Source: Convolutriloba macropyga
Lineage: Eukaryota
Reading direction: 5' to 3'
Assembly (NCBI RefSeq): GCF_964194025.1
Contig: NW_027451928.1
Coordinates: 1-64,000, forward strand
Length of the DNA: 64,000 bases
The notes under the pieces: model-generated
The model's input: the letters and a program-made list of their open reading frames with translations, nothing else
The model's database searches: none
What the model was told of the DNA's origin: nothing
Made by a program: the position numbers and the translations under genes
Part shown: in pieces, positions 11,401 to 58,646 of the stretch
Layout: each line of letters opens with the position of its first letter
Numbering within the stretch: position 1 is the stretch's first letter

Positions 11401-14400
11401 TGGAACTTTTCAACCTATGGCATAAATAGTTCTGACGAAAATACTTCACAAACAATATGAACAAACAAAAAAATCTATTTAAAAGTCTTGTTTAAAAATT
11501 TTATCTATACTTTCTACTCCGCGTTAGTGAAAATATCACCCTACTTTTTTTCTTTTACTATACAATACAAGCAATGTGACGTACAATGCAGCACATGATT
11601 CGTTAGCGAACGTTTGCAATTTAAAAATTTGATGTCATAAACTGGATTGCTGTTTGAAACAAAATAATCTGAAAAACTAAGCATATTTTTAAAACATGCT
11701 GGCCATGTTGATGGAACTGCTTCATAAGTTAGGCCTCGCAATCTTTACCTTTCAAATGACTTCATGGAACCTACTATACGTACCATATTCTTTATGTAGA
11801 AAATCGATTATACATTGTAATGCTCCAAAGCAGGACAAGGGAGGAAGAATTCTTTAACTCCTCCAATTGCACAAAAACTTTTTAACCGAACAATAAATTC
11901 TGATCACAATCCCCCTTTCAACTGATGGTGGTGACAATATGTACAATTGTTTTACCTTGAACAGTACACAGACTAGTGGAATTGGGTTGTGCCCCATCTT
12001 CCTAGCCACAACATCACAGTGCTCCGAGACAGAGTCCTTCTTCTTACTTCCCATCCAGTCCATCGCCAGACTCAGACGATACTCTACAAAATCACAATCT
12101 AAACAGCTCACTCTGCACTGTCAAAATAGAAACAATTTTTAAAAAAAGTATTTAACAGCTCTTCAGTTAAACTAAATGCCAGTAATTCAAAGAAAACCGT
12201 ACAAGAAGCATTACTTCTAAAATGCTGTTGCCACAAAAAATGAAGATGTTGACTTTGATTGTACTGAGTACTCAGAATTCTCAAACCAAAAAAAAAAAAC
12301 AAAATTAGCCAGAAATTTACCATAATTTTAACTTTGTCTTAATAATGAGTCAATTTTTGGTACCTATCTCAGAATCATTAAAACAAACAAAACAGTTCTT
12401 ATAAGTCCTCGTACCACGCAAGGCACCGGAAGGTTGTAATTGGGCGACAAAGATTCATGCACCCTAACTCAGATCTTGACAAATCAGTTGACATCTATAG
12501 CACTATCAAAGAAAAATTGCGTGGCATTTAAGCCTATGGATGATCATAGCTATTTATATGTAGCTTTAGCATTTTTGTAAATGACGTCCATTTTTCATCT
12601 AAGTAGTTGGCAAAAATGAAAGAAAAACTGTAGAAAAAATGTTTGGTTACAACTAATTATAGGTATGGCAATGACAAGAGTTGAGTATGAGAGAACATAT
12701 ATAAATAGTTTACGTTAAATTGCAAATTACTCAGAGTAAGGTCCTCTTGAGAGTGCCCGACGACATGTACGGATACGAAAGTTAATTAAAAAGAAAATTT
12801 GGGCAACACATTCTTCCCAACTGAATAAAAGCAAAGAGGGATCGTGTTACGAAAAGCATCTTGGAATAGAATAAAAAAGAGCACAACAGAACATAGCTGA
12901 CAGCAAATCACGGTGACAGTGATGATGTGACTCTAATATAATTGGCAATATCTGTATCTCAAGGCCGCTCGAGTTACGTGAGTAGTGATGTGTCTTTCAT
13001 GCCCCCCCCCCCCCCCCCCCCCCCCCGTAGTTTGCCCAGAAAGACACATCACTACTTACGTGAATATACACATCATAACCTGGAATCATTTCTTGTATCT
13101 AATTGGGACTTAGTAAAATTAGTCTCCAGTCAATAGGGCATAATTCCGTCAAAAATGGTTATCTTTATGTTAAAGTTTATATTTGTTAAAGGCGGTTTGA
13201 AAGAGAATGTCGAACGACCTCGTGACCTGTCCGTGTTATATCATTAATTATCAGTGTTACAACAAAAAATATTCTTTCTTACACATTCATTGCATCATTT
13301 ACGAGCAAATAAAACCATTTATGAAAAATCACAATAGTTCCCTTAACTATTATAAAGAAAATCTGAGCAGTAAGAGATTAAGGTGAAGTAGAATTGCCAA
13401 ATCAGACTAGAAAACACTTCAAAACGTTGCTTTTTATGTTGTTCGCGGCAAAAGCAATAGATCTTTCATAGATTTCAAATAGAAAACCGACAAGCCTACA
13501 TACAGAGAAAACCCAGATATAAGTTTGCCACTTTTACGTAAGCAACAGTAAGTTGAGTCCCACGTGACATCTCTTCAACATGCTCGTCAATTAATTGAAT
13601 TCGAAATTTTCACTCAAATTAATGGAGGCGCGACCAAGTTGAACAGATTTTAGGTGGGGTCAACTTCCTGTTGCTATCAGAAAACTGACCAACTTCTGTC
13701 TGAAATTTCTCTGAAAGCCGGCTCGTCAATTTTTGTCAAGCGAAATGTATTAAAGTTCTGATAATAATGCCTCGACCAGCATGAAAACCAATAGAAACAG
13801 TGAAAATTATTCTGACAAAAACTGACTTCAAAAACAGGCAGTTGACCATGTAAAACTGCATTTTATGCGTTTAGTTTTGCCAATGAGCGCTTACTTAATA
13901 TCGAAGGTAAGTTAGCACTCTACAGTTTCTTGTAATTTCTCGTAATTTCCTATCAAACATGAAATTTTGATCTCATAAATTATATGAAGCTAACTTACTT
14001 TTGATGTTGAGTATAATATTTTAGCAAAGATTCCTAACCTGAGTAAACATCAGCTGGTATTTCGTTGAATTTGGCAATGAAACAGTGCTTCACCCAATCA
14101 ACTATGATCTCCGAAAACCCAACCAGGGCTAACTCAGGCAACAGCTGTCCGAAATAAACCACATCCCAATTCAACTCTCGCAGGTTCCTCACTGACACTA
14201 TGACCAATAGAATTAATAGATGCAGTCGTTCTCTGACGTCAGAGCAGGTAAGCTGGTACAAGTTGTTTTTGTCGAATTTCTTGAACACCGTTCCCTTCAG
14301 CTCCGCAAAATTGTTCGACATCATCACTATTAAGAGACTCTTGTTGTGCGAATTGAAGGCAACACTGAAAAAAAAAGAATTAATTTCTCCAATGAAAAAA

Positions 14401-17400
14401 TCTATGTACAAATTACAGCAAAATATCATATTGCATTGGAGGGGACAAACAACGAAGTTATACACACCCATTTTCAGTCTACCCCACATTCACAGCAGAC
14501 TGAATCATAGAAAGATACTCCAATGATACTTGGTACAAAACCATCAGGATGCGTACTAATTTGCAGGATGTTTATGTGTTTAAAAAACATAGTAGTAAAA
14601 AGGAGCAATAAATACTCGAGAGGAATGATTCAAACACTGACCTCTGTCCCAGAACAATTCTATGCGATAAGCCACTGCAACTCTAGTCAAGAGAATCAAG
14701 ATCTTATGTGTTGAGAAGGTGAATCAAGTGTGGTGTCACTTTGAATGCTTTATGAGGCGAGGGTAGGGTATAAGGGGAGGGGGAATAAACAGACAGTTAT
14801 TGTGCATGATCCCTGAAGATAACCTTTTGTCACGCCCCTATTTCGTCCCTCATAGTTACGTGATGATATTCCTTAAAATATCCATAAATAAGTGATATAA
14901 ATTAATTAATATTCATTTAGTTTCAAGGCCATTTATAGCTAACATTTCCATCTAGGCCTGTAACCTCTAATTTGTTTATGTATACGAAAAACAACCGCAG
15001 AAGTGACAGTTTAATAGCAAACATATCAAGTGCCTAAAGGCCTCAATATTTACTTTTTTGAGTTTCTTGATGATAAATTCACATAATCAGTAAATAACTT
15101 CATGAGAGATTATGTACTTGGCGAAGTAATTATTCTGATAAAGTAGGTGCTAATACGGAACTTGTATATGTACTTAACAAACATCAAGAGACGTACAAAA
15201 GCCGGAAACCGCCCTACTTGAAAATCAGTAAATATTTGCGAAGGACCAATACAACTGAAGGCACAAAACCTGCGGAACCCACTATCTCCAGAACACCAGC
15301 GAACCGACCCAGAAATCAGTTGATAAAAACTAAAACTTTCTTTCAATTATTGTGACATCTTTCTTAATTCTAACAGAGGAAATAATAAAAGATTGAACTG
15401 GCAATTCTTTTAAAATTCTTTCCAAGTCTGAGACTACTCGTCAGAAATAATGTTGAGATCACAGATACTCCTAAACCAAGGCAACTAGTGGATATATCGC
15501 ATATCCGAACCGCTCAGTAAAAGGCTTTTCCTAGCTAACTTTATTAAAATATATCTGCTAAAAATTGCACTGTGAAACATCTAAATAAGACCTTGGAAAA
15601 TGGCAATAATTACTCTAGATTATCTCCATAATTTGTATCAATAACAACCCACAAAAATACTCTAAAAATCAGTGCGTAACATGGTGACAGGAGTTATTAA
15701 CTGTTTTCCAGTTTAACGGACCGATAATTCGGTTAATTCCTTGATATTTTCGATATTTCCTTTCTTTATTCTGTTGTTTTCTTCCTTCTCTTCTTCTCCA
15801 TTACCTTAAGAGCCTCCAATCATCCAGAACCACATCCAGCACTTCCTTTCCGAGCAAGATGATAACACAAAAAGCAGTAACAAAGGAAAGAATGGGTGGA
15901 AACTGTGTTTGTGTCTCTGTGGACTAAGTGTAACAGTAATACAAAAGTGTTTGAGTGGACAATAACTGGAACAAACTCAACCACAGCCGCCACAACGGAC
16001 AAAAACAATACAGGGTATTTGCAAACGAGGATATTGTGAGTAAATGAATTTGTAAAATTAATTTTGGTGCTTTATTTATGTCAATTTATAAAGAACAAAT
16101 TCTCCCCGCTATTAATAATTGTCGCTCTTCCCCCAATTTTGTTGAACATATTGAAGGAAACCACATTAATTATACCCAAAACAACAGTAAAACGCAAGCT
16201 CAGATAGTAATCGCTTTTTCCTCTTCATTTTATAAGTCTATCGTTATTTATGTGCTAGATAAAGATGACAAACGTGTTGCAATTTATTGGACAGCAAAAA
16301 GTTTAAATCAGAAATCTCGTAAATTTGGACTTATCCGTCACAAACTTCAATCTGATAAAGAAATTAACCTTGATAAGATCATCACTGATTATCAGATAAC
16401 ATCAGAATAATAAATTACTGAAACCATAACTTAATTAATAAATAAAAAAGAGCGCAAAACAAAAGTTTAAACAAAAATAAAAAACAATTATATTTTATTT
16501 CCCCACCCAGCTCCGGAGGTTAATGAATCAAACAGTGACTTCAGTCATTACGCTGTTGCCTATCTGAGTGCAGCTTCCACAAGGCCTGTGCGGTCGTGGT
16601 CCCCACGAATTTTCCTAAACTAAGGGGCACTCTTCAGAGGTGAGACTTCGGCGGCCCATACGGCTTCAACGATATAAGTCTGACGATTCGACCGGAGCTT
16701 TAGGAATAGGTTTATAAGCAGCCCTTCTTTATTATTTTTAGAACGAATGGTTTCAGTAGTTTCTTTTCTGATATTTCTGTGCTATTCATTTAACTGTTTT
16801 CTTCACTTAAATCCCCTTAATCTCTCCATTAAGTTAAGTTAAGCGTGCTATTTAATACTTTAGAACGAAAATAAGACTGATTGAACGAAAAGTATATAGT
16901 CTAATCGGGTAAAAAGCAAAATGGCACACGCGCAGATCAACATCACGCCTTTTTCCGGATCAGAAACGGACAATTTTAACGAGTTCAAACAACTAATAAC
17001 AGGTGCAATCGGAGTTGCAGCAATCGCAAACGCGCAACAAGCGAACTTTCTGCAATTACATTTAAAAGGAGACGCTTTACGATACTTCTTAACCCTACCA
17101 GAGGCTACCAGACTAGTTTTTGAAGACAGTATAACAGCCCTAAGACACAGATTCACGAAGGATGACTTCAGAGAGATCAGAATTATAAAGTTAGAGAATC
17201 AAAAGTTTAATCCAAAAACAGACACTGTTAAAAATTTCTTAGTAAAGTTAAGAACTGAAGCCAATAAAGCATATCCAGCACCTGAAATAGTAGTAGCGCC
17301 AGCAGGAGCAGGTGACCCAGAAGCTCGTAGATTCGAAAGAGAGACAGCAGCAAGAGATTCTGCCCTTCAGATGTCAGAAAATCGAAAAAATGAGCAAATA

Positions 17401-20400
17401 AAGCGCTTCTTTATTAAGCCTAAGCTTTTAGAAAGGCCAGATACAGATACCATTGATCAAATATGCACCTTAGCTAGCCAACAGATTGCAATAAGGGAGA
17501 TGTGTAATAGAGAAGAGTACTTTGACGATGGATTTAATGAAATAACAGTAACAAACACTGATAAAATGTTAAAAGCAATAACTGTTATCTCCAATAATCA
17601 GAAAGAACTTGAGCAGAAGCTTCAGCAGAGAACAGCACCTAAAAATGAGCCATCAGAACAAGGCCCAGTAAACACATTCACACCACATTACCCTCAACAA
17701 GTCTACAAACAAAGTTATAGACAAAATTTCCGCCCACAATACCAAAATTATCGACCAAATTACCCTCAATATCAGTCTAATTATCGTCCAGTTCAGCAAA
17801 ACTATCGGCCCCAGCAACAGTACGCCCCCGTGCTAACAATTACCGAGAGTTTAGACCATAATTTAATGCCCCTAGACCGTTTCATTATAACGAACAGCCA
17901 CAAACTCGTAACTATTGGACCGAACCTTCAGACAGTCCCCAATTTGTTCATCCAGCTTATGTTAATAGACCAGTTTATCGGTTCCCAACAAAAAATACCC
18001 CACAAAACCTTCTTAGACAGGGTATAGTTTACGATAGTCCAGCACAAGACCGATACGGTATGCAAAAAGCAAAAGAATTTAGTCGTGCTGGTGCACTCCA
18101 AAGTAGAAATATGAGAGGTATGAATTTCCCATTTAATCAACAGAAAAACTAATAAAGCCACCCAACTTTAAAAAACAAAATAAAAATTATAAAAACTCAG
18201 TTAACCATTATAACGAAAGCACGTCTAGTCCTAGTTTAGATAAAGTAATTGATCCAGTTTATAACAAAAGTAACAAAAAGCGTAGAAAACGCAAAAGTAA
18301 TAATAATAAATGTAAAGTGAATAAAACTGTGCAACTCCCAACACAAGTATCTCAATCCACACCAAAGCCAATACCACATGTTCAGCAACTATTTAGCATT
18401 GTCCCACTTTTAGGCAGAACATTATCCTATGTTAAAGTTAAATTTAATGGAGAATTAGAAAGACGCGCACTAGTCGATACAGGAGCATTTGCAAATGTGA
18501 TAAGTCGTGAATTCTACAAAGAACTAAGTAACACAAATATTAACTCAATAACAGAAATAGAAAAACCTGATCTAGATAAAGTTAAAATGGCAAACGGCAA
18601 TATAGTTAAAATTGATAAAGCAATTAAAATTACATTTAAATTGGGCACACAAACATTTACAGAAGATTTCCTTGTATTAATTGTCACAACTCCTGTAATC
18701 CTAGGCAACCCATTCTTTGTTAAACATAAAGTTAGCATCTGCCCAGGACAAAGTTACATTAAATTCCCTGATCAAACACTACAAATAAGTGAAATAAAGC
18801 CAGAAAAGCAACCCAGAACAGTTGTAAAACGAAAAAAATTTGGAGTTTATACACAGAAAAAGCAAGTTTTACAGCCGAATCAACAAGCAGTATTAGAATG
18901 TAAGCTTTATGATAAACTAGAATCATTCACTGACCTTTGTGGAGTAATAATTCCAAACGAAATCTTTGAAAAAGATAGTGAAGTAATATTAACATCATCT
19001 CTAAGTAAAGTTGCTGAAAAAAACATTCTCTACATCTATGTCCTGAACATTACTGACCACCCAATTACCATAAATAAAGGCGAAGAAATAGCCAAATTCT
19101 CATTCTTAACATCAGACCAAGCTGAAAAGTTGTTAGAAGTAGATCCTCAATTAATAAATGTTGCAAAAATGAGCGAAAATTACTTAACAGAAATAAATCA
19201 ATTAATTCAAGTTACAGACACCCCGAAAAGAAAATCTCAGCCAGCGAAACCGGCCCCGGAATATGAAAAACTATGGTTCCCAACTCCTGAAACGTGCCCA
19301 GATCCGACAAATTTGTCGCCTTTGCAGAGAGATCTATGAGCAACTGCTAAAACTGCAAGAAATGGAGAAATTAGATCCAAAGGGTAAACATCAGGATAAA
19401 ATAACATTTTTAAGCAAGTTTCCGTGGGAAAAATCAGCCCTCAATGATGAGCAAAAAGCAGTAGTAGGTGAACTACTAGTCGAATTCAGTGATATTTTTG
19501 CGAAACACAGATTTGACGTTGGATATAATACAGATTTAAAAATAAAGTTAACTCCAGAAAGAAGCATACCAATTTACGAACAAGGCCCTCCAACGCCCGT
19601 CCATTTGAGAAATGAGTTACAAGTAGAGCTCGCACTAATGCATTATTACGGACTGATAACAACCTTGTCTCAATCAAGATATAGTAGTCCACTTTTCGCT
19701 CAAAGAAAGAATTCAGGAAGACTCAGACTATTAATTGACTTAAGTAAACCACTTGTTGAAAAATGACTACGTGAATACCAATTTCCCGATTTCCAACATG
19801 AGTGACGCAATAAATTACTTTGCCGGGAAAAAATTGTTCACAAAACTTGACTGTTCTCATGCATATCACTGTGTGCAAATGGCAGATGATGTATCAGTGC
19901 AACTGCTAGCATTTAACTTTGCTTCGAGAACTTATGCATATAAATGTCTCGCACAAGGATTGAATAAGTCAGTAACTGGATTTAGCTCTTTCATTAGACA
20001 TTATTTGGACCCATGTTTAGCATCAGGAAACTGTACCCAGTTTATGGATGATATTGGAAATGCAGTAACAAATTTTGAACAATTGGTACCCTCTTTAAGA
20101 GAAATTTTTACGTGTATACGTCAATCTGGATTAAAATTGTCACCCGAAAAGTGTGAAATAGCAACTGACACAATGAAATTCCTTGGAAATAACATCAGTG
20201 CAGAAGGAATATCACCAGAAAAATCAAAAATAACGAAATTTCTTGATAAATTTAAAATGCCGAAAACAACAAAACAAGTAAAACGATTAATCGGCTTCAC
20301 GCAATTCTTCCGAAATTACATTCCTAACTTAGGTGAAAAACTAATGTCATTTTACAAGCTCCTGAAGAAGGATGCAGTAATAGAAACCGCAGAAGAACAT

Positions 20401-23400
20401 GTAAAAGCATTAGAAGTAATAAAGAAGGATCTAATGGAAGCAACAAATGTAACATTGCGATTGCCAAAACCAGGCCTACAGTATGTAATTCTTTGCGATG
20501 CTAGTTACCACGGTGCAGGTTTTGTACTAATGTTGGAAGACTACGTAAACGAAACAGGAAAGAAAGAAAAGAAAACATACGCTCCCGTATCGTTTGGATC
20601 GCATTTGTTTAATGCTACACAATTAAAGTTCTCAATTTATTACAAAGAGTTCCTAGCCTTGTACTATGCGCTGGACTACTTTTCACACTACATTTGGGGA
20701 TCAAGCAAACAAGTAATTATACTCACTGACAACAAAAGCCTCACACAATTCTTCCAGTCAAAAGTAATACCACCATCTCTTTGGAATTGTTTAGACAGAA
20801 TACTCGCCTTTGATATAGTAATTGCTCACATTCCTGGGCGCGCTAATTATGCTGCAGATTTTCTCTCCCGAATGGAGAATGACAAAACAGCAACAATGTC
20901 TTTAAAGTTAACAGATAGAATTCCAGTTAGAGAAATAGAAATTGATACAGAAGCACAAAACCCTGATGTTGAACTAAATGTACTGTTAGATGCAGAAATA
21001 TCCAATGATGAAGTAAATCCAGAAGTATTAGATGCTCTCAAAAAACTCGGATATTACGAGGACTACAAAAAACGGCAAAGTAATTTACCAGTAACAGAAA
21101 TCCAAGGACTGTTTAAACTAAAAAGAAAAACAGAAATAAATTCAATTGAGTACCCAAATCCATTAGATGAGTTTCCAGATCTTACAGACAACTTAATTAG
21201 CCTTAATTTAGCAGAAGAGCAGCAAAAAGATACAGACATTAGAACAGTAATAAGCTGGATTCAACAACCTAATCAACAACCAGATTTAAAGTATGCTTCA
21301 ACCAATTTAAAAAAGTATCACAAACACTTAAACAGATTAATTCTTGAAGGGAATGTCTTATACCGGAATTTTTATGATGATACTGGAAAAGTACTTCATA
21401 AACAATTCTGTGTACCTAAGCATTTGTGGAAAGAGACTATATATAGGTTCCAAAATTCACAAACAGCAGGTCACTTAGGCACCAAAGCAACAATTCAGGA
21501 ATTTAGAAAGCGATTTTATTATCCAGGCTTCACTGAACATTTCATTAGCTTCATCAAAAACTGCCTCACTTGTCTTCAATTGAACAGAGTACCGAAAAGC
21601 CACATCACACCGAAACTGCAACCAGTCAGTTCACTACAATCATATCCAGGAGATATGCTCCAAATTGATTTAGTAGGCCCCCTAAAGTCATGGCAGTATA
21701 AGTATGTTTTGAGTGCAATAGATGTCTTCACAAAGTACCAATTCGCAGTTCCATTAACAAATGGATATGCTGACACAGTAGCCCGAGAACTAGTAAAGGT
21801 GTTCTTCCAACACAGCTACATTCCTCAAACGATACTTAGTGACTTAGGAACCAACTTTACTTCTGAATTAATGTCAGAATTAGCAGGTTTATTAGAAGTA
21901 AAGCTAAAACATGCCTCACTAAAGCACCCTCAGACTATCGGAGCAGTAGAACGATCTCACGGACCACTGAAACGAATTCTGAAACTTAATACAGAAGAAC
22001 AATGGAAAGACTGGCATAAATATGTTCCTCTTGCAACCTTTATCCATAATACTTCATATCATTCAGCCACAAATTGTTGTCCTTCAACTCTATTCCATGG
22101 CAGAGAACCCATAAAACCCCTTGACGTACGGTTCTCCAGAAAAGTAATGGAGAACAAATTGTCCGAATACCAGTTAATCCGTTAATTGCTGATGAAATTA
22201 GACAGCAAGAACCAGAAGTTCGTGTTCCTCTTGTATCATCCTCATCAGACGATGAAATGTTTCTACCAGCTCAACAGCCACAGCCGTCAATAGTACCATT
22301 TGATATTGAATCGCCTCCAGAAACACACGAAGAGCAATTTGCTTTAACTGATAGAAAAATAAGAGCCAGACCTTATAATCCAAAAAGAAAACCAGAGAAA
22401 AGTGCTTTCAAATCACCAGAATACCAACAAAAGAAAAATGTGCAAGGATTTAAAATAACTAGACAAATACAGTTACATGATGAAGATAGATCTAACCCTC
22501 ACCTAACCAACCCAGTCAGAAGATCAGGCAGTCCTAGACCAAAAAACGCTCGTGCAAGACTGGAACAAGAAGAAAAACGTGAAGCAATAAAAGCATCAGC
22601 ACAAGCATCAAAACAGTCAAATACTCCAAGTAGAGAGACAAAACTAGATCAAGTTAGAGCAAGTATAGCAAAATATTCAGGGAAAAAGCCCAGCAGTTCA
22701 ACAAACAAACCAGTAACCAGATCTCAAACAAAAAAATCTTCACCAGGCTCATCTAATCAAAATTTAAACCATTTTAGTCAAGAAATAAATGCAACATATC
22801 AAAGTTCCCCAACAGATATCTTATATTCACCATACTCTTTTGCACACTGTATATCAGCTGACCTTGCAATGGCAAAGGGATTAGCCCGACAAGTCAAAAG
22901 CTGGTACCCAGCAGCCCCAAGTGCAATTAGACTTAGATATCCACCAGATATTGGCTCAGTTTTAATCTACTTCGACCCCATTTCCGAACGTTATATCTTC
23001 AGTTTAGTAACAAAATTCAGATACTACCACAAACCAACTTACGAATCTGTATTAGCAAGTCTCTATGAGCTGAGAGAAATAGTAATAGATGCAGGAATTT
23101 CACACTTAAGTCTTCCAAAACTCGCCAGTGGCTATGATAAATTAGATTTTAACATCATTTTTGAGCTTATATGCCAAGTCTTCGACCCTCTACCCATAAC
23201 CATCTATATCCATTGGTATGTACAGACCCAGTACAGTCCAGCAGTACCCTTTATCCGCCCCAAAAGCCCAACAAGCCTGAGCAACTTAGCCCTAAAGCCC
23301 AAAAATCGCCAAAAACCGAAAATTTTTGACCTCAAAATCCAGTTATTTTGATATATCTCCAAAACTACTTGTCCGAACCTGGATTAACCTATTGTTCTGA

Positions 23401-26400
23401 AAATCCCTCATCCAGTAGAAGCGATTCCAGCCTTTATTGACCCCATTCGACCCGTTCTAAGTACCAAAAACTTAGTCTAAAATTGACCCTTCCGAAAATC
23501 CTGGGTTCAACTCAGAAAAACAGTCATAAAATTGTGAAAAAAGCCCCGATCATTCCAAATTTTTGCGCTGCAGCATTTTTCAAGCCGACATGCAAATTTT
23601 GAAGCGATTTGGAGAACTTTAAAAATCGAGTGACGCTGGAGCCCTCAATTTTTGACACTTTTCGAATCCGCTCGAATTCAATGATAACTCCTACAAAAAA
23701 CCTTCAATTGACCCATTTTATAGCCCTAGACCATCCTACTGCTCACGCTTGACACCCCAATACCCAAAAATTCCGTCAAAAATCAATAAAAGTTGAGTTA
23801 TGACAAAAATACCGAACCCTACCAAAGTGCGTTAAAATTGATTAAAATGTAGTGTAAATTATATCCCAAAAACATGCCAAAAACTGTCCCAAATGCCTCC
23901 AGCAGCTACCCCCAGCTACCACCTACATGGTACAAACTCAAACAACCGTTAAAACCCAATATTTCCAAGTATATATTGAAAAATGACGAAAAAACGAAAA
24001 TTGCGCTTCTGCTTCAATCCTCCGCTTCAAAAATTTTGTCATTTTATTCTCCACCTGACCCGATAAAAGCCACCTATACCACCTACAAACCTAGTGCGAC
24101 CCCCCACTAGCCTCGTAGTACCATAAAAATCAGTCCCAACTCATCCCAGTATCAACCATGAAGACTTCAACCCAAATAAGCTCTGAAACCGCCACAAATT
24201 TGTCAGGAAAAATTCAGTTATTTCCCACTAGAGTCAAAAAAATTAACTTCTGACAAAAATTAACCACACCATCAGCACTCCCACATCTATAGCTCTCAGA
24301 ATATGCACTCCCAGCCCCCTAGTGCCAATACAAGACTGCCAAAGTAACGAAAGTCACAAAAAATCGAGTGAAATTTCCGAAAAAAGTGATCAAACATGCA
24401 TCTTAATACCCGAATATGCCCAATTTTATTGTTAATTCAGTTAGCCCCACTCATAAGCAGTCCAACCATAGCAATATCAATCATTTTGAACAAGTTTTTC
24501 TTAGCCTCATAGCCAATAACCTACCCCCTATCTGGGCCTTTTAAAAAAACCCAGGTTCACTGCAGCACAAACGTTATAACTAGAACAAACGTTAAAAAAT
24601 AGTCAAAACCACCCAAATTTTTGCGCTGCAGGGTTTTTTGAGCCGACAAAGCGATTCACCAATTTTGAGCTCAATCGAAGCATTTTAAAAATTGAGTGAC
24701 GCTGGGCCCCTCAATTTGGAGACTTTTTGAAAATTCACGAACATGTTCGGAAAATCCAAAATATGATCGAAAACCTGATATTATTAGCTTAAAACATCTG
24801 CATGCTCAAGCTCTACACGCCCATATCAAAAATATTGAAAATTATTAAGTAAAATGTTGAAATAATAGCAAAAAACTGAAGCCTACCAAACTCTTCTCAA
24901 ATTCGTCAAAACAGAGCAAAATTTAGAACATAAAAATAGTATCGAATAGCCGAATTATGAGCCCATATCCAATATTCAGTCTCCCTAGTAGTTACCCAAG
25001 CCCAATAAACCCATACAATCGCACAGAAATTCATAAATGTTGAAAAAAGTGAAAAAACCGAAAATTGCAGATATTTCACAAAATTTGGTCCGAAATTCTA
25101 AACTGAAAAACTTAATATATTATAGTCAAATAATGCATTAAACCACACCAATAGCTGCCACCAACATAGTACTCGCTAGTATGACCCCCACAATTACTGT
25201 CAAAAATCAATTCTCTTCAATCTATGTCAACTTATGCACCAAACATGACGCTTCACAAGTAAAAAATCAGTACATTTCACAGAAAAACTGGTATAAAACC
25301 TAAGTTAATCAACTCCAAACCTACCAAAATGCTACCCCTGATAGCCACAGATATCAGTAACAACAGTTAGCACCTGATTTAGGCCACTAGAGAATCACCA
25401 GACTGACACATGTCTCGAAGAAGCTCAATTAGTGGAAAAATCATGCTTGAAAATTCGCATTTTGGACCCAAAAATCAACGTTATGACCCGAAAAATAGCT
25501 TCAAACCCTATAATTCATTAACATACATTACAACAAACCAAACAAACGTGAATTAAAGTAACAAAACTTAGTGAAAATTGCGACAAAACACAACAAATAC
25601 CTGACTTCCGACCAGTTAAAGTGTAGTACAGAGCACTGAGAGCACACAGACCACCAACTTCGGCCCTCACACCAGCCGCACCAAGCAACTTTGGAGTTTT
25701 AAATGACACTATGTCCACATGCTCAGCATAAATGTCATTGTAAAACTCGTACCCCAATTCGGCACACACATTTGCACGCAGATTTGCACGGAAAAAAGTG
25801 CAATGCACCTCTTTGCCGTGCATCTTCTTCACGAAACATGGCACACACTCATGAATAGCTCTAAATAATAAGCATACACCACTCCACAATTAATAATACA
25901 TGTAACAAACTAAAGAAAAACAAATAAAAATATCAATAAATATTATAAATATATGCAATTACCTCTCAACAGCGGCCTGCAATCCCCCCATCGACCGTGG
26001 AAAGAAGAACCCAGCAGCTTTCAGGCGATCGACTTGTGACCTCACACGAGTAATGTGCTTTGCAGAAGCACTAAACCCGACATGAAGCGAAGCCAACTCC
26101 TGAGACACCATCTGCTGAGTTGGAATTTCCTTCTCCTGAACTTGCATCTCGCTGCCCACCTTCACTTCCACTTTGTACATCAACACCTCCCGATGTACGG
26201 CCAATTCTGATGTTCCCACGTTCTTTGTCCCCAGTACCATATGTTCTGCTTTGTCCCGATAAGCTCGTCGCTCCTCAGATGACCGAACAAATGATGGATA
26301 CACCCATTCAGACTGAGACAACGACTTGCTTCGCAAGAAAGTCAGAAAATCCTCATACTGGGCAACATCCATGATTCACAATAACTATCTGAAAGTTTAA

Positions 26401-29400
26401 AAAATTGAGTCAAACTAGTTATTAAGCAAGCAGAAAGTTAACGTGTTAAGTCAAAAATGAACAATCACAGGAATGAAAACACACAAACAGAACAAATTAC
26501 GCAATAAATGCCAAGGACATTTAAATACCATGCTATAATGACCGCTAATAGTTAATAACACATGCCGCAAAACACACAACAACGCTCTGAACATACAATT
26601 GCACCCTTCACTAGCATTCACTTATTTACTACGTCTCTCTAATTCTTCCTTTTGTCCCCTACTTATATCCTCAACCCCCCCCCCCCACAAAACAAGTCTT
26701 GATATATTAATTACTACCATATTACTAGCACCATGTACGAAGTATATTAGTAGCACCAGTCAATATTACATGTAAAACTACAATATTAAAGTCAGTCCCA
26801 ACAGTCAGTCCCTTACACAGTTATATTAATATTAATATTACACAATATTACAACTATTAATATAGTTAAATAAAATAAAAATAAATAATAAGTCACACTG
26901 AATCCTCCCTGACAGCCTCCTCTGATCTTTTCACTTCCCCCTTCTCCTCCTTCGATTTGCCCACACTCCCAACAATCCAGATACTAATGATAATAATAAA
27001 AAGAATACTAATATAATAATAATCCACCACTCAGTCCCACCACCACTCCCATTATCAATAACTATATCATCTACTGCTGTCATATTGCACTTTGGATGTT
27101 TCAATCTTGACCAGTGAACAGCGTTCCTTCCGACAAACCTGGTCCCAGTTGTGCAACATCCAATAATTAAAGAGGAAACAGTGATATTAAAGCACATGGT
27201 GCAATATTGTGGGCAAAATAATCTGAAAAACTCGAAAAAACATGTAAAGACTGCATAATTCGACCCCCCCAACCACTATCCCCATCATCACACACCCATC
27301 ATTCAACCAAATAACCACACTTCAACATGTTTAAACACCATACTCAGTAGTAATATCAATAAATACACACATCAGCACACATCACCTAAAAGTAGAGTAC
27401 ACCTGAAATAAACAAACATCACATAAACAAGTGACATATTGAGAAAACTAGATCTAGAAGCCCGAGTAAAGTAACTAAATGAGCAAATAAACACCGGAAG
27501 ACCAAATAGAGCCAGTTGAAACACTCAGAAGAGCCACATCAGTAGAAGATTGTCCTGAAACAAAGTCGATATTATTGAAATATGAAAATGTTACTCACAA
27601 TTGTGTTAAATCTCTTACTTTTCGGCCCCACTTTTGAAACTCCGATCAATACAGAAGCAGCTCTGGATAAAGGCATCATCTTCCATAAAGAAGGAAAGAT
27701 TCTGATTACCGAAAAGTTCATAAATGTGGAATTTTTAGTACCGTTTCCTCGCTATAATTTCACTATCAGACAACAAGTAGAGACTCTACTTAATGATCTC
27801 TCGAAAAAGTGGATCACGCAATCGGAATTTTGCAACCTTACCCATAGCACTACTTACCGGAACCAAACAGCTGCCTTCAATGTTGATTGGCTTTACACAA
27901 AAATACTCAATGAAACCATAGAAGCCGAAATTGAAGTCCTCAAATTGTGCAACGAGACTGAAAAACTCCTTACCAGAGTCAAAGAAGACCCTCACACTCG
28001 ACAAAAACGAGCCGCCCCGCTTGCAATAGCAGCCGCAGTTGCTGGAATTGGACTCTTTGGTCCAGGAATCGCAATGAGTAGCGGAGGATGCGGTGGAATT
28101 ACAGGAATTTTCGGATCTTGTCAGCGAACGTCTTAAAACGCTGAAAATATTGATCGATTAGCTAACAGTTTCAATAGCCTCAACGACTATATCATGGAAA
28201 TCGGAGCACAAACCGATGAGAAATTTTTCCTAGTTGCTGACGAACTTGCAAAGGTTTAAAAAGTTCAAAACGAAATGCAAGAAAACCAGAACAGAAACTG
28301 GAAACTAGTAGAGGAACAGTTTGCAATTATAGATCACAATCTGAACGCACTAGCAACCTGCATGGAAATCCAACTATCACAGCAACAATTGAATATTAAC
28401 TTTGATACAGCAGCTTCATTACTTCTCACTCTTTATGCAGATATTAAAAGTTACAGAGCAGCCTTATATTCTTTTCGAATTAATGTTATAAACGCAATTC
28501 CTACTTTGCTTGACAAACGTCTTCCAATCTCCTTAGTGCCTCGTAAATCTTTGATAAAGATCCTTGATTCAGTCCATGATAGCCAAAAGAACGCCCCAGA
28601 TCGTCTAACTTTGGCAATACCCATGACTGACATCCTTTCGTACTACGATGCGAAATTAGTACAAGAGATTTCGACAGTTGAAGACGGACATTTACTGACA
28701 CTAGCCATTCCCCTAGCCTCTAGCCAGACAGTGTTCGAAGTTTATCGTGCAATAGTAATCCCTATGCCTCAAAAGGACTCCGTAGACGCCTTACGATATG
28801 TAATAGAGGGGAGTACTTAGCAATCTCAGAAGGACAGATGGAAACCACAGTACTGACGAAAGCCCAGTATGACAACTGCCTTGGATCGCCACGATACACA
28901 ATCTGTCATGAGACAATGGAAACCCACCTAGGATTCTCCTCGTGTCTAGCAACCCTCAAGTTTCACCACACAATCTCAGCATTGAAAGTATGTGATACAG
29001 AGAAGGTTGTGTTACCCAACCCAGAACGAGCACAGAACCTCGGATATGGAATTTGGCTCCTCACATCAGCTTCAAGTGATTATACCCTTAGTGAGATTGG
29101 TATGGACGAAAATGGCCGACACATCAATGTTCCTCACAAAGGTTGTAACATCTGTTTAATCACATTAAAATGTGGACATACAATGTTCAGTGACAACATT
29201 AAGATTCGAGCTGATTTACAAAGTTGTCAGTACCTTCCAGCAACCAGAATTAATGTTAAATTATCAGATCCACTTGCCCATTTAATTGATTCAGTGCCTA
29301 ACAAACATGAACTTCCGAAATATGACTCTCCCACCGAAGCAAATCTCGATTTATTGAAGAAAGTTAAAACGGAATTTATTTACTCGAACAGAAAATTATC

Positions 29401-32400
29401 AACAGAGTCACTAGATGCCATAGCAAAGCCAATTACCACTGAAATGAAGACATTCCAGCCAGCACTAATTGATAAACTTGAATCTTACGTACCGATCAAA
29501 CTTTCCCTTTCATTAACCATTATTGTTTTTATCGGAAATCTAGCGTTACATATTTTCTTCATGTTCTTATACCATAAAGTAGCCTTTGTACGAAGAATGG
29601 TACCAAATTTCATGAAGCTCAACGGAACCAATGTACCGCTAAACCCAGTAGTTTCCGTGCCCAAACATCTAAAAGCAGATGTAGTCACAACTCTTGCCAA
29701 ACAACTCAAGCAACCTCCAACAGTCATATCTCCAGAAGAACTTGGAACACTCAAGCGACGAAGACGAAATTCCATGCCAACAACTTCGGCTCTCTCATTG
29801 AACACCCTGGAACGGTTCAATACAGAAGACGAACTGGAGAATACAGCTCAAACCCCAGAGGAAAGTATGCTTTGAGTTCTTGATAGTCTTATATAAGTTT
29901 GACAAGTATTATTCCTCTCACACATTAAGTATCTCTTCATTCATTAAGCTTAACTAATCAGTGCTTCATAAGTTCAAACTAGTACCTGAATTCACAACCT
30001 AAACCAGTGCATTAAACCATCCCTCCAGTTTGACCATATGTGTCTCCTCCTCAAAAGTTTAGAGCCATTATTCACAGAAATAACCATGATTATTCCCAGT
30101 GCTAATTCCCGCTGTTCTTTTAACCGTCACTTTATCTTATGTCTTCACTCTTTCTTCTGAATGAGCGCATTTTATCTCCCCTAAATGTTTCTTTAAAGCC
30201 TTTAACCTTGTCTCAACCTTCTTCATTTTAACTTTATCTTAACTTAACCTTTATTTCTCTTAACTTCTTTAACTCTTTTTAACCTTAAATGCTTTCGTTC
30301 AAAACTCTTTTCTAAGAAAACATAAATTGGGTGGCTCCAACAAAAATATGTTTATATCCTTATACTCGTGCAGATTATACGTTTTATAGAAAAATTGTAA
30401 AAACCCAGTTCCTTCAAAATTTTCATGGAAAATTTTCCTAAAGTCGGGTAGTGTCACGCCCCTATTTCGTCCCTCATAGTTACGTGATGATATTCCTTAA
30501 AATATCCATAAATAAGTGATATTAATTAATTAATATTCATTTAGTTTCAAGGCCATTTATAGCTAACAATTCCATCTAGGCCTGTAACCTCTAATTTGTT
30601 TATGTATACGAAAAACAACCGCAGAAGTGACAGTTTAATAGCAAACATATCAAGTGCCTAAAGGCCTCAATATTTACTTTTTTGAGTTTCTTGATGATAA
30701 ATTCACATAATCAGTAAATAACTTAATGAGAGATTATGTACTTGGCGAAGTAATTATTCTGATAAAGTAGGTGCTAATACGGAACTTGTATATGTACTTA
30801 ACAAACATCAAGAGACGTACAAAAGCCGGAAACAGCCCTACTTGAAAATCAGTAAATATTTGCGAAGGACCAATACAACTGAAGGCACAAAACCTGCGGA
30901 ACCCACTATCCCCAGAACACCAGCGAACCGACCCAGAAATCAGTTGATAAAAACTAAAACTTTCTTTCAATTATTGTGACATCTTTCTTAATTCTAACAG
31001 AGGAAATAATAAAAGATTGAACTGGCAATTCTTTTAAAATTCTTTCCAAGTCTGAGACTACTCGTCAGAAATAATGTTGAGATCACAGATACTCCTAAAC
31101 CAAGGCAACTAGTGGATATATCGTACATCCGAACCGCTCAGTAAAAGGCTTTTCCTAGCTAACTTTATTTAAATATATCTGCTAAAAATCGCACTGTGAA
31201 ACATCTAAATAAGAGTAAATGGCAATAATTACTCTAGATTATCTCCATAATTTGTATCAATAACAACCCACAAAAATACTCTAAAAATCAATGCGTAACA
31301 CCTTTTATTTGTTTAAAAAGGCTACCTTAAAGTTGTAGCTTCCAGAAGGATGATAACTGAATGCACACATATGTACATGAAGGCCAGAAAGAACTGGAAG
31401 AGGAATTTGAAAAGAGCTCTCAGAGCTGATATGGACACCATTGCATGATCCTTTTGAGCTATACGCGTAGCTGTCCAAAACACAGTGTCCATCAGGTCTT
31501 GTCCTAGAGTAGAGAACAGTCTGTCTGCAACGTCCAGCATATTGAATATTATGTACACTTTCAAGACATTCTGGCCACGCACCTGAGAAAACAGAATTGT
31601 TCAAGAATGTAGACTCGTTTTCTCGGATAGGTGAACAACTCAAACTCTAACGTCATCAATACATAATTGATTAATTTTTTTCCAAACTAATGCCAACCAA
31701 CATAACTCTTAACGTAAAGCTATGTTCCATTTGTTACTTAACTGATTACAACGGTTTTTAGCTTGCAATTAAAAAGGATATCCGTACAAGATATCTTCAG
31801 TCTTCAAAGCGACTTCATAACTTAGCAGAAAGAACCCAGAAATTTATACATCTAAAAACTAGGCGTAAAGCTTGTTGAAACAAAAATCTAGCAATACGAG
31901 TGCTATGAAAAAACATTTATGATACGACATAAAATTGTTTCAATTTCAGACAAAACATGAGTTATCCATCCATCATAGAATACGCTTAAGATTGAAATTT
32001 GTTCATTCTTTTTGGTGAAAATTTCCCATGCTCGGCAAGTAGTTATCGCAAAATTACAAAAAACATTTAAAATATCAGTTGACAAAAATATTAATAATTT
32101 ATAATTTTCATATATTCGTAATATTCATAAATATTATGAAAATATTCATAATATCACTTCAAATAAAATTCACAGGACGAAATTTTTTTTAATCACGAAA
32201 ATGTGTTTTAAAATATTTTACCACTTTACCTGATGGTACAGAAACGACAAGTCTATCCACTGAAGGCTGCAACAACAGAACACAGTCAATAGCACTCTCA
32301 CAATATCACAAATCTGAGCGGGCTCTAACATCCGTTTCCTCCTCCCGTCACTTGTCTTTCTCTGGCGTCCAAAAAACGACAATAAAACCGACTTGATTAT

Positions 32401-32709
32401 CAGAAACAGTCGAATAGGGAGCATAGCTAGCACAAATATGAACGAATCCAACGCGAGCATAAATCCATACAGGAAGAATTTTTCCAAATGAAAGGGAATT
32501 CTGATCAACGTGTAAACTTTCTCAATTTTCTCTTCATATTTTTCGTGTTCGTTATTCAATTCGTACGTGTTCTTGATTTCCATTTCAAAGTATTTTGTAT
32601 ATGACATCTTGGACAAGTTTGAGACTAAGTCATATTGGAAATTGGCACTTTTGACATTCTCGCTGTTGTAATTTGCTTTCAGCTCGCGAGTTGTAGAAAA
32701 TGCAGCCAT
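8461..32709 (-). CDS. TAPT1: Transmembrane anterior posterior transformation protein 1 homolog, 6 coding exons; intron 2 holds the LTR element
   Basis: Exons 32709-32230, 31582-31326, 14364-14039, 12083-11956, 11306-11181 and 9090-8461 join in frame at GT-AG sites. Motifs: RGQNVLKVYIIFNMLDVADRL, VAFNSHNKSLLIVMMSNNFAELKGTVFKKF, VDWVKHCFIAKFNEI, VARKMGHNPIPL. Confidence 0.93.
9421..9933 (-). mobile_element. Helentron-like non-autonomous element (HINE family 1), diverged copy
   Basis: Carries both family ends: CATAGCTGGCAGATTGCCAAAAATAGCAGC and AATAATAGCC...GCGGCTATTT. Confidence 0.55.
12982..13055. mobile_element. 74-bp hAT-like mini-MITE
   Basis: Perfect 17-bp TIRs (GTAGTGATGTGTCTTTC at 12982-12998; GAAAGACACATCACTAC at 13039-13055) around a poly-C tract. 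Flanked by the 8-bp direct repeat TTACGTGA (12974-12981, 13056-13063). Confidence 0.75.
14828..15681 (+). repeat. 5' LTR (854 bp)
   Basis: Direct repeat of 30452-31300, with about 10 substitutions and one 5-bp indel by eye. Candidate initiator TCAGTT at 15316-15321 and AATAAA at 15384-15389. Confidence 0.97.
15682..15694 (+). promoter_or_regulatory. Primer-binding site, tRNA-Leu-like
   Basis: TGGTGACAGGAGT directly abuts the 5' LTR. It is one mismatch from TGGTGTCAGGAGT, the complement of a typical animal tRNA-Leu 3' end. Confidence 0.8.
16078..16410 (+). CDS. 110-aa leader ORF upstream of gag, unknown function
   Basis: ATG-initiated 333-nt open frame in very AT-rich leader DNA; no recognised motif. 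Confidence 0.4.
   Translation: MSIYKEQILPAINNCRSSPNFVEHIEGNHINYTQNNSKTQAQIVIAFSSSFYKSIVIYVLDKDDKRVAIYWTAKSLNQKSRKFGLIRHKLQSDKEINLDKIITDYQITSE
16921..18152 (+). pseudogene. gag: gag, with a frameshift at ~17829 and a stop at 17859-17861
   Basis: Capsid-like N-terminus (ITPFSGSETDNFNEF, LQLHLKGDALRYF, LRHRFT, VKNFLVKLR) and a Q/N/Y/R-rich tail. The shifted frame ends ...NQQKN* at 18152. Confidence 0.88.
18143..18152 (+). promoter_or_regulatory. Putative -1 gag-pol frameshift site G AAA AAC TAA
   Basis: The heptamer sits on the gag stop. The -1 frame from 18149 is open into the protease ORF at 18317. Confidence 0.65.
18149..22185 (+). pseudogene. pol: pol (protease, dUTPase-like spacer, RT, RNase H, integrase) with frameshifts at ~19330 and ~19743 and the integrase C-terminus lost at ~22151
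   Basis: Protease ALVDTGA and VILGNPF. RT SSPLF..LLIDL, KLDCSHAYH, QGL and FMDD. RNase H LCDAS, KEFLA, LTDNK and ADFLSR. Integrase (Q)..GHLG..C..C with IDLVG / SDLG / VERSH. Confidence 0.95.
22152..23351 (+). CDS. Low-complexity linker plus TARG1/OARD1-type macrodomain (~22780-23215), probably the original C-terminus of Pol
   Basis: SFAHCISADLAMAKGLA, YIFSLVTKFRYYHKPTY and LSLPKLASGYDKL align with TARG1 LAHCISEDCRMGAGIA, YIYYLITKKRASHKPTY and LSMPRIGCGLDRL. The frame is open from the integrase break point, upstream of the ATG at 22257. Confidence 0.88.
   Translation, partial: EQIVRIPVNPLIADEIRQQEPEVRVPLVSSSSDDEMFLPAQQPQPSIVPFDIESPPETHEEQFALTDRKIRARPYNPKRKPEKSAFKSPEYQQKKNVQGFKITRQIQLHDEDRSNPHLTNPVRRSGSPRPKNARARLEQEEKREAIKASAQASKQSNTPSRETKLDQVRASIAKYSGKKPSSSTNKPVTRSQTKKSSPGSSNQNLNHFSQEINATYQSSPTDILYSPYSFAHCISADLAMAKGLARQVKSWYPAAPSAIRLRYPPDIGSVLIYFDPISERYIFSLVTKFRYYHKPTYESVLASLYELREIVIDAGISHLSLPKLASGYDKLDFNIIFELICQVFDPLPITIYIHWYVQTQYSPAVPFIRPKSPTSLSNLALKPKNRQKPKIFDLKIQLF
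23400..25520. repeat. Diverged ~1.06-kb tandem duplication inside the LTR element
   Basis: CCAAATTTTTGCGCTGCAG..AGCCGACA..GAGTGACGCTGG..CCCTCAATTT occurs at ~23555-23650 and ~24613-24720. Further matches at ~23820/24885 and ~23990/25050. Boundaries approximate. Confidence 0.65.
25601..26372 (-). CDS. Spliced antisense gene: integrase-type H2C2 zinc domain plus OTU-like Cys box (Ginger-like, no DDE core); 3' end unresolved
   Basis: Exons 26372-25963 and 25860-25601 flank a 102-nt GTAATT...TTTAG intron and join in frame. This gives LH(x8)H...FFFP...VERAIHECVPC, then VCAELGYEF...VGGLCALSALYYTLTG. Next donor CAG/GTATTT at 25600. Confidence 0.72.
26931..27197 (-). CDS. Small antisense single-pass membrane protein (88 aa from ATG 27197, or 50 aa from ATG 27083)
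   Basis: NGS sequon, hydrophobic stretch WWIIIILVFFLLLSLVSGLLGVW and basic tail NRRRRGK. TTTTTCAG acceptor 25 nt upstream of the first ATG. Confidence 0.55.
   Translation of the reverse strand: MCFNITVSSLIIGCCTTGTRFVGRNAVHWSRLKHPKCNMTAVDDIVIDNGSGGGTEWWIIIILVFFLLLSLVSGLLGVWANRRRRRGK
27582..29875 (+). pseudogene. env: env, class I fusion glycoprotein (F-like), with stops at 28134 and 28257 and a frameshift at ~28810
   Basis: Signal peptide, N-glycosylation sequons, furin site RQKR (27999-28010) and fusion peptide AAPLAIAAAVAGIGLFG. Followed by a heptad-like helix, the LAIPL..FEVY..IPMP motif, a Cys-rich region and TM LSLSLTIIVFIGNLALHIFFMFLY. Confidence 0.92.
30440..30451 (+). promoter_or_regulatory. 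Polypurine tract (weak)
   Basis: Purine-rich AAAGTCGGGTAG immediately before the 3' LTR. Confidence 0.5.
30452..31300 (+). repeat. 3' LTR (849 bp)
   Basis: Direct repeat of 14828-15681; ends ...GCGTAACA, followed by the TSD CCTTT. Confidence 0.97.
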
Positions 32710-33360
32710 TTTGTGAAACAAAGACAACCTGAAAATGTGTCAAAGAACGAGCATAGCAAACATATTTTAACAGTTTTGACCATTAAGAAATTCAATAGGT
32801 TCGAGAAAAGCTGATTCAGTATTCAATAGGGGTTCCAAATTCAGAAATTACGGCAATGCCTCAGTCTGCTAAGACAGGTATTTTCCATTTCGTCATTCTC
32901 AATTATTAATTCCATTCCAGAAAAATCGATTCTATCAACTTTCGGCTAAAGCATCGATCATGAAAAAGATTCTTATCTTTTTCGTCTCCATTGAAGTTTT
33001 CAACACAAAATTCATTCAGTTTTTAAGTTACTCGGAGGTTTTGAAAGAATCTAGCTACATAATAGCCCTTTCCGGTCAAAATTATCAATAATGATTATGG
33101 AAAAATATCTTACCTATGGTCAACAATTTTGCAAATACTGCAAAAACAAAAAAGCTACCTCTACAAAAAAAAAAGACTTTATTGCAGCTCAATTAGCAAA
33201 ACCTCCTGGCCCGTTCAAAAGGCAACGCATTAAAAACTCTAACAGCAACTGAACTGCAATTTAGTACAAAGAATTGGCACTAGCTTATCAGTGCTTATAA
33301 ATGTGCACCCATAGTAAACAACACGATCCCTATAACTCATCTCCGAAAAATAAAAAAACA

Positions 33361-35616: not shown

Positions 35617-58646
<23,030 letters not shown>

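Follow-up and report, generated by a model that had tools for sequence, protein, structure and literature searches.

The closest described relative of the domain reported here is human TARG1 (OARD1, C6orf130; PDB 4j5q, 4j5s), a stand-alone host gene product with a minimal ALC1-class macro fold. Passages in PMC9411070 and PMC7050489 assign its catalysis to a Lys84/Asp125 dyad and that of the DarG antitoxin macrodomain (PDB 5m31, 5m3i) to the Lys only, and parts of PMC8501950 report removal of thymidine-linked ADP-ribose by TARG1, for which K84 is required. We analyzed the first 64,000 nucleotides of contig NW_027451928.1 from Convolutriloba macropyga (NCBI RefSeq assembly GCF_964194025.1, forward strand; this whole stretch is called the window below), in which a single long terminal repeat (LTR) retroelement of 16.5 kb (14828-31300, +) houses a TARG1-type macrodomain (22788..23213, +). 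This domain forms the natural C-terminus of Pol, whereas TARG1 is not a Pol piece. Judging from the sequence and from structural modeling, we lean slightly towards a TARG1-type ADP-ribose eraser that is delivered in the particle and probably clipped free, serving counter-defence or clean-up and not acting as a targeting module.

Macro domains as such are already known from LTR retroelements, as the first-pass annotation of this locus, made from its letters, had allowed. Env-bearing epsilon-like fish endogenous retroviruses (ERVs) carry open reading frames (ORFs) with a macro domain (PMC4977317, in passages citing Basta et al. 2009), although these elements are Retroviridae and not Ty3/Gypsy. 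The "ancient errantiviruses" (PMC13524379, in part) resemble our element in their LTR-gag-pol-env layout, in the anatomy of an F-type env, and in an extra domain after integrase in some clades. In that 2026 survey of 1,512 env-carrying Ty3/Gypsy elements, however, chromodomains follow integrase in some clades and a macrodomain is never named (no occurrence of the term in the main text); the matches shown by a term search of its supplements were species names, and Pol sequences are not within the searchable supplements. No link between macrodomains and retroelements appeared in the term-matched passages of PMC8672886, PMC4299795, PMC2678813, PMC4695847, and PMC8120803, or in those of two preprints (10.1101/2021.11.30.470311, 10.64898/2026.07.25.740670). 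The literature covered, which did not include subscription journals, Repbase, GyDB, or bioRxiv supplements, yielded no report of a TARG1-type domain within Ty3/Gypsy Pol. What appears to be new is the TARG1-type Pol terminus in a Ty3/Gypsy clade.

A macrodomain at the end of Pol

The +3 frame is open over 22125-23351, and within it the 142-residue domain matches human TARG1 (4j5q, residues 16-142) with an E value of 4.1e-15 among 177,635 PDB sequences. Its LVTK motif pairs with LITK of TARG1 and its SGYD with CGLD, and the K and D matched in the PDB chain lie 41 residues apart, the same spacing as K84 and D125. By this alignment, the equivalents of Lys84, Gly123, and Asp125 are encoded at 23013-23015, 23130-23132, and 23136-23138 (all +). 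Residue labels are taken from the TARG1 alignment, except those before human position 28 (Asp20), which we presume. In the binding loops, Gly43 and Gly123 are retained, while Ala occupies the Gly41 and Gly121 positions and Tyr that of Leu124. Across 17 aligned rows of the clade, Lys84 is present in all 17, Gly123 and Gly43 each in 16, and Asp125 in 14.

The AlphaFold2 model of the macrodomain (mean predicted local distance difference test, pLDDT, 96.1) and its fold comparisons show a minimal macro fold with neither N- nor C-terminal extensions. Foldseek placed TARG1 at all of ranks 1-8 (query TM-score, TMq, 0.83-0.90; 29-31% identity), the human structures scoring 0.88-0.90 at ~31% identity, with DarG next at 20-22% identity. 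VIA-align gave near-equal scores to DarG (Z 22.6, root-mean-square deviation 1.6, 143 aligned) and TARG1 (Z 21.6, 1.8, 138 aligned). DarG shares the catalytic Lys; by sequence, though, the domain is TARG1-type and not DarG, because it has both Lys and Asp and DarG uses Lys alone. The NCBIfam DarG profile NF048014 gave 24.4 bits against a cut-off of 250. Unlike DarG, the element has no C-terminal DarG domain, and no DarT-like partner was seen in it.

The first-pass annotation had assigned 22152..23215 to a TARG1/DarG-class macrodomain retaining the catalytic K and D. The fold, the two residues, and the TARG1 half of that class held up; the DarG half did not by sequence, even with the structural scores nearly tied, and only 22788-23213 of the span is macrodomain, 22152-22787 being low-complexity linker. 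A profile built from 83 homologues recognized TARG1 at 1e-59 and DarG at 2e-17, whereas a Pfam scan assigned no family to the window macrodomain at E<=0.1 or 0.05, with no match to Macro. Among the 662 six-frame ORFs scanned in the window, this is the sole such domain.

A search for longer relatives yielded 26 proteins among 352 candidates, 23 of them sister copies that represent 88 sequences. Six of the 23 read in a single frame through the integrase C-terminal region and the linker and into the macrodomain, at least as far as its start; P0001, P0008, and P0013 run in one frame from the integrase C-terminus to the macrodomain end, and P0022 from the integrase core to the macrodomain start. 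Thirteen of the 23 stop right after the last macrodomain strand, beyond which the window copy has an extra 45 codons (23214..23351, +). The window integrase frame tracks the sister copies until RFSRKVM (22149), and the +3 frame follows them from EQI at 22152. Since the sisters hold 242-247 residues between these two points, the window copy carries a deletion at 22151/22152 (junction 22150..22152, +), which shifts the frame and removes the integrase C-terminal region and the first part of the linker.

Of 8,000 candidates scored in a second search, 11 were long Pols. Eight of these end in the macrodomain and two stop early; P0177, P0178, and P0181 (clusters of 61, 121, and 47 sequences) have an unbroken ORF from protease to macrodomain. 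An in-frame integrase-linker-macrodomain Pol fusion is therefore confirmed in relatives, and the break at ~22151 and the ancestral fusion cut by a deletion, both proposed in the first-pass annotation, are borne out by the sister copies together with the unbroken ORFs of three related families. An independent macrodomain ORF is ruled out for the clade, short proteins that start in the linker (e.g., P0007) being same-frame fragments. No unbroken protease-to-macrodomain Pol was found for the window element's own family, in searches where long proteins may have been crowded out, so the own-family fusion rests on overlapping sister proteins and on the related families.

Age, selection, and a candidate release site

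Over 36 pairs from nine sequences, mean identity is 66% for RNase H-integrase, 41% for the macrodomain, and 30% for the linker, and macrodomain identity follows Pol identity (Mantel rho 0.47, p 0.005). The clade domains formed one group outside 22 named animal OARD1 in a quick tree of 121 rows (approximate likelihood-ratio test, aLRT, 87). They did so again (support 90/58, 88% of bootstrap trees) in a 57-row tree, from which four near-duplicates, two branches of extreme length, and all rows lacking a label had been removed. Deep branches are weak in these trees. The window macrodomain is 25-33% identical to the 22 OARD1. These comparisons of sequence show that the domain is old within the clade. 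A tree had been proposed at the outset as the way to separate capture of host OARD1 from an old element-borne clade, and it gives no support to recent capture, since the clade domains fall outside the named OARD1. A single origin of all retroelement macrodomains was neither established nor rejected (approximately unbiased test, p 0.29). Two proteins, P0169 and P0137, which may be chimeric gene models, cluster with host genes.

Selection was read from 13 copies of the window element's own family, with the caveat that they were recruited through macrodomain similarity. Of the 142 macrodomain columns, 2 hold shared variants, compared with 31 of the 176 columns of the linker (Fisher p 5e-7); the counts of private changes, 45 and 66 respectively, are much alike. 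Because shared variants are skewed to the linker and private changes are even, the copies show a signature of purifying selection on the macrodomain in the replicating lineage, followed by decay after insertion.

The linker remaining in the window (22152..22763, +) is a low-complexity stretch of 204 aa rich in Pro, Ser, and charged residues (19% hydrophobic); across the clade it measures 200-305 residues, not counting the integrase C-terminal region. In the window it is followed by LNHF (22764..22775, +), a hydrophobic-Asn-x-hydrophobic motif that is a candidate protease site and lies in a predicted coil with pLDDT <50. Of 12 Pol tails, 10 have such a motif 4-8 residues ahead of strand 1, compared with 0.4-3% per tail after shuffling, and it occurs in none of 21 named animal OARD1 or 42 other domains; the macro-less tail of P0187 also lacks it. 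The presumed junctions between protease and reverse transcriptase (RT) and between RNase H and integrase show the same pattern. In a matrix trained solely on 26 of these junctions, the macro-proximal site ranks first or second of ~270 positions in 8 of 10 relatives. Cleavage sites of the Ty1 protease are of a similar make-up, with Val/Ile at P2/P2' and hydrophilic P1/P1' (passages in PMC6952103). The Ty3 protease follows a comparable rule. Taken at the level of the clade, protease release of the macrodomain appears likely, and for the window element's own family it is uncertain.

Comparable domains occur elsewhere. A representative-library search returned 1,962 matches; among the best 150, 69 longer ones were scanned, and 12 of these, outside the clade, carry retroelement Pfam domains, some perhaps as chimeric gene models. 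Their macrodomains lie on one side or the other of protease, or follow RNase H, the integrase zinc finger, or the integrase C-terminus, a variability of position that would suit a diffusible enzyme better than a tether. Distant elements (P0044 and the P0060 type) likewise have it downstream of integrase. In a separate family (P0060, P0062, P0064, P0078, P0103, P0109, and P0154), a TARG1-type macrodomain comes after the integrase C-terminus and is itself followed by a CCCH-like zinc finger, a layout that we take to recall ZAP/PARP12-type modules. In fish ERVs the macro domain is reported to lie inside pol, before integrase; CDD labels some insect Pol entries "Macro_Poa1p-like," and macro (A1pp) domains occur in some non-LTR elements. 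Database matches show that the domain is common in retroelements, so that it has probably been picked up in annotations yet gone unstudied.

The same fold is found in invertebrate RNA viruses (25-37% identity; Kadipiro virus VP8 and thrips flavi-, negev-, and virga-like viruses) and in phages (12 records at 26-34%). Unlike the present element, these viruses, the phages, and the cressdnaviruses are not retroelements. The closest viral folds are those of invertebrate RNA viruses and cressdnaviruses, and the macrodomains of corona- and alphaviruses are far more distant (11-17%). By analogy, these closest viral neighbours are in keeping with counter-defence.

The element and its host locus

The LTRs (5', 14828..15681; 3', 30452..31300; both +), each ~850 bp long with TG...CA ends, differ from one another by 11 mismatches and 5 gap columns against 837 matches. 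A 5-bp target-site duplication, CCTTT, borders the element (14823-14827 and 31301-31305). Directly after the 5' LTR comes the primer-binding site TGGTGACAGGAG (15682..15693, +), whose 7 terminal bases agree with the tRNA-Trp ends listed for other env-bearing elements, which makes tRNA-Trp the putative primer. A gag-like ORF (16921..18027, +), so called from its position only, has an apparent frameshift near its 3' end and found no match in a Pfam search.

Pol is spread over several pieces upstream of the macrodomain frame. Piece 1 (18137..19339, +) holds an aspartic protease (DTG; Asp_protease_2, E 5e-7) and a dUTPase-like stretch (~18845-19120, +) between protease and RT, which Pfam matches at E 0.06 in the window and at 2e-4 in the relative P0181; this stretch may be a second accessory-enzyme fold within the same Pol. 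Piece 2 (19206..19766, +) contains the start of RT, is 58-72% identical to long Pol relatives, and is frameshifted at both ends relative to intact ones. Piece 3 (19744..22149, +) carries RT (FMDD), RNase H, and the H2C2 and catalytic core of integrase (RVT_1 1.5e-18, RT_RNaseH 7e-17, Integrase_H2C2 2e-11, rve 4e-11). The domains run protease-RT-RNase H-integrase with a single RNase H and an H2C2 integrase, which is the Ty3/Gypsy order, and with its TG..CA LTRs, target-site duplication, and primer-binding site the element is a Ty3/Gypsy LTR retrotransposon. It is not a chromovirus, as a Pfam search of the window and of 5 long relatives gave no Chromo match.

Between pol and env lies an unusually long spacer of 4.2 kb (23352..27581), C-rich on the + strand (GC skew near -0.3), with a 120-bp repeat at 23555-23666 and 24613-24731 (77% identical). 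It contains minus-strand ORFs at 25962-26372, 25521-25889, and 26934-27275, which could represent either a nested fragment or accessory genes in antisense orientation. The first of these encodes 137 aa with a Met start and a coding look, and another has a hydrophobic stretch followed by RRRRRGK. Searches of Pfam, NCBIfam, and PHROGs gave nothing significant for these ORFs, nor did PDB for the 137-aa one. By eye, 25962-26372 (-) resembled an integrase N-terminus, a likeness for which a profile from 10 Pol segments gave no support.

The env-like gene (27582..29875, +), absent from the first-pass account of the element, is broken by two in-frame stops and one frameshift. Inspection by eye shows a signal-like start, RQKR at 27999-28010 with a hydrophobic peptide after it, a Cys-rich part, and a C-terminal hydrophobic stretch, an anatomy that suggests an F-type env as the third ORF before the 3' LTR. 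Baculo_F matches weakly and under the cut-off (E 0.039 for the window env, 0.013 for sister P0002), and a PDB sequence search gave no match. Env is part of the window element's family, because the sister proteins P0002 and P0014 fuse the macrodomain straight to mid-env. With pol split over four frames and env carrying two stops and a frameshift, the window copy is dead.

The element interrupts, in antisense orientation, an intron ~20 bases away from a splice donor; the host gene is DUF747/TAPT1-like, and its exons were delimited by eye at 32221-32739, ~31323-31590, and ~14034-14367 (all -). Further along, 34600-46000 is a cluster of dispersed and near-identical repeats, with several 300-bp blocks at 100% identity and 38-bp tandem units; a local duplication or other mobile elements probably account for it. 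A BTB_SANBR domain (E 4e-22) is encoded by a host exon at 55979-56593 (-).

Possible roles of the domain

As a particle-delivered eraser, the domain would act in the active lineage, not in the dead window copy. The hydrolase would be made as the last Pol piece in an env-bearing, errantivirus-like Ty3/Gypsy lineage and, as part of Pol, would be packaged in the particle beside RT and integrase. The element's protease would probably cut at the hydrophobic-Asn-x-hydrophobic site just ahead of strand 1, as for other Pol enzymes. The freed domain could then strip PARP-type ADP-ribose from nicked or single-stranded cDNA, from RNA/DNA ends, or from Glu/Asp of element proteins, a role comparable to that of retroviral dUTPase or RNA-virus macrodomains. 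Reverse transcription and integration generate nicks and single-stranded overhangs, and such cDNA structures may become ADP-ribosylated in the host. TARG1, according to PMC11102865, reverses PARP1-made DNA ADP-ribose at unligated Okazaki fragments, nicks, and single-stranded DNA overhangs.

Several observations weigh against this proposal. The binding loops have drifted, with Gly at the Gly41 position in 2 of 17 clade rows versus 20 of 22 hosts, the adenine-binding Asp retained in just 6 of 14, and the window domain itself substituted at Gly121 (Ala) and Leu124 (Tyr). In P0184 the macrodomain stays in frame with its Lys, yet the Asp and the binding loops (loop 2) are gone, and P0187 ends in a 374-residue tail with no macrodomain, so the domain is dispensable. 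For the release site, the matrix ranks two relatives 4th and 7th and the own-family site just 22-25 of ~340 in three tails; the relatives are kin and not independent trials, the training junctions are themselves inferred, the low pLDDT at the motif may merely mirror a shallow alignment, and the literature anchor, Ty1, is a Copia protease and not a Ty3/Gypsy one. We know of no PARP-type restriction of retroelements in the host, and PARP1 is said, in passages of PMC7050484, both to help and to repress retroviral integration.

The first-pass annotation had compared the domain to a chromodomain and proposed that it either steers integration to ADP-ribosylated chromatin or erases PARP marks on the pre-integration complex. 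On the steering view, the domain would remain on integrase, bind ADP-ribosylated chromatin at damage sites or active genes, and direct insertion there. We regard this as unlikely. It would explain why the macrodomain is the last Pol domain, downstream of integrase, in the eight long Pols and in the same place in P0044 and the P0060 type; it would also suit the readers within the ALC1-like class (passages in PMC7050489), the weak cleavage-like site in the window element's family, and the intronic position of the sole insertion seen, although a single insertion is uninformative on preference. Yet the eraser residues are retained, the linker measures 200-305 residues, with the domain lying 220-300 residues past the integrase C-terminal region, and a junction-like motif precedes it in most relatives within a region predicted to be unstructured. 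In other elements, moreover, it precedes protease or comes after RNase H, positions from which it would be unable to tether integrase.

An eraser that remains active on integrase and clears PARP marks at the pre-integration complex or the gapped integration intermediate would fit the residue conservation and the selection data equally well. Passages in PMC7050484 link PARP1 to repair of the 4-6 bp integration gap, and the element duplicates 5 bp. Such a tethered enzyme would leave unexplained both a conserved junction-like motif amid a linker of 30% mean identity and the way the domain changes place among other Pols, and we hold it to be quite improbable. We give least credence to a repurposed fold, for example one that binds nucleic acid or has a structural part in the particle and retains little ADP-ribose chemistry, or to a tolerated passenger. 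Repurposing would accommodate the frequent Lys/Arg in loop 1, the strong basicity of several clade domains (net +13 to +17), the frequent Asn in place of the adenine Asp, the degenerate P0184, and a macrodomain that diverges faster than RNase H-integrase; Lys84 in every row and Asp125 in 14 of 17, despite deep divergence, speak against it, and a passenger is excluded by the purifying selection seen in the recent lineage.

Chromodomains and PHD fingers in retrotransposons are captured chromatin domains, usually taken as targeting devices. By contrast, a whole clade here keeps an enzyme with intact predicted eraser residues at the end of Pol, where the junction suggests release, and P0184 with its degenerate domain and P0187 with none offer natural comparison variants. 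The trait is probably under-counted, since standard Pfam annotation overlooks the domain. We suggest tentatively, and with real doubt, that many invertebrate Ty3/Gypsy lineages, each on its own, acquired or shuffled a TARG1-type hydrolase that the protease releases as a particle enzyme, in answer to ADP-ribosylation of retroelement cDNA, RNA, or proteins by host PARP-family enzymes. If the enzyme is active, ADP-ribosylation would be a real pressure on invertebrate retroelement replication, a point that is unsettled for retroviruses, where PARP1 data conflict. Were the broader proposal true, it would mean a so far undescribed ADP-ribose-based anti-transposon defence in animals together with an element-encoded antidote, a eukaryotic parallel to DarT/DarG that has escaped notice because the domain scores under the Pfam threshold.

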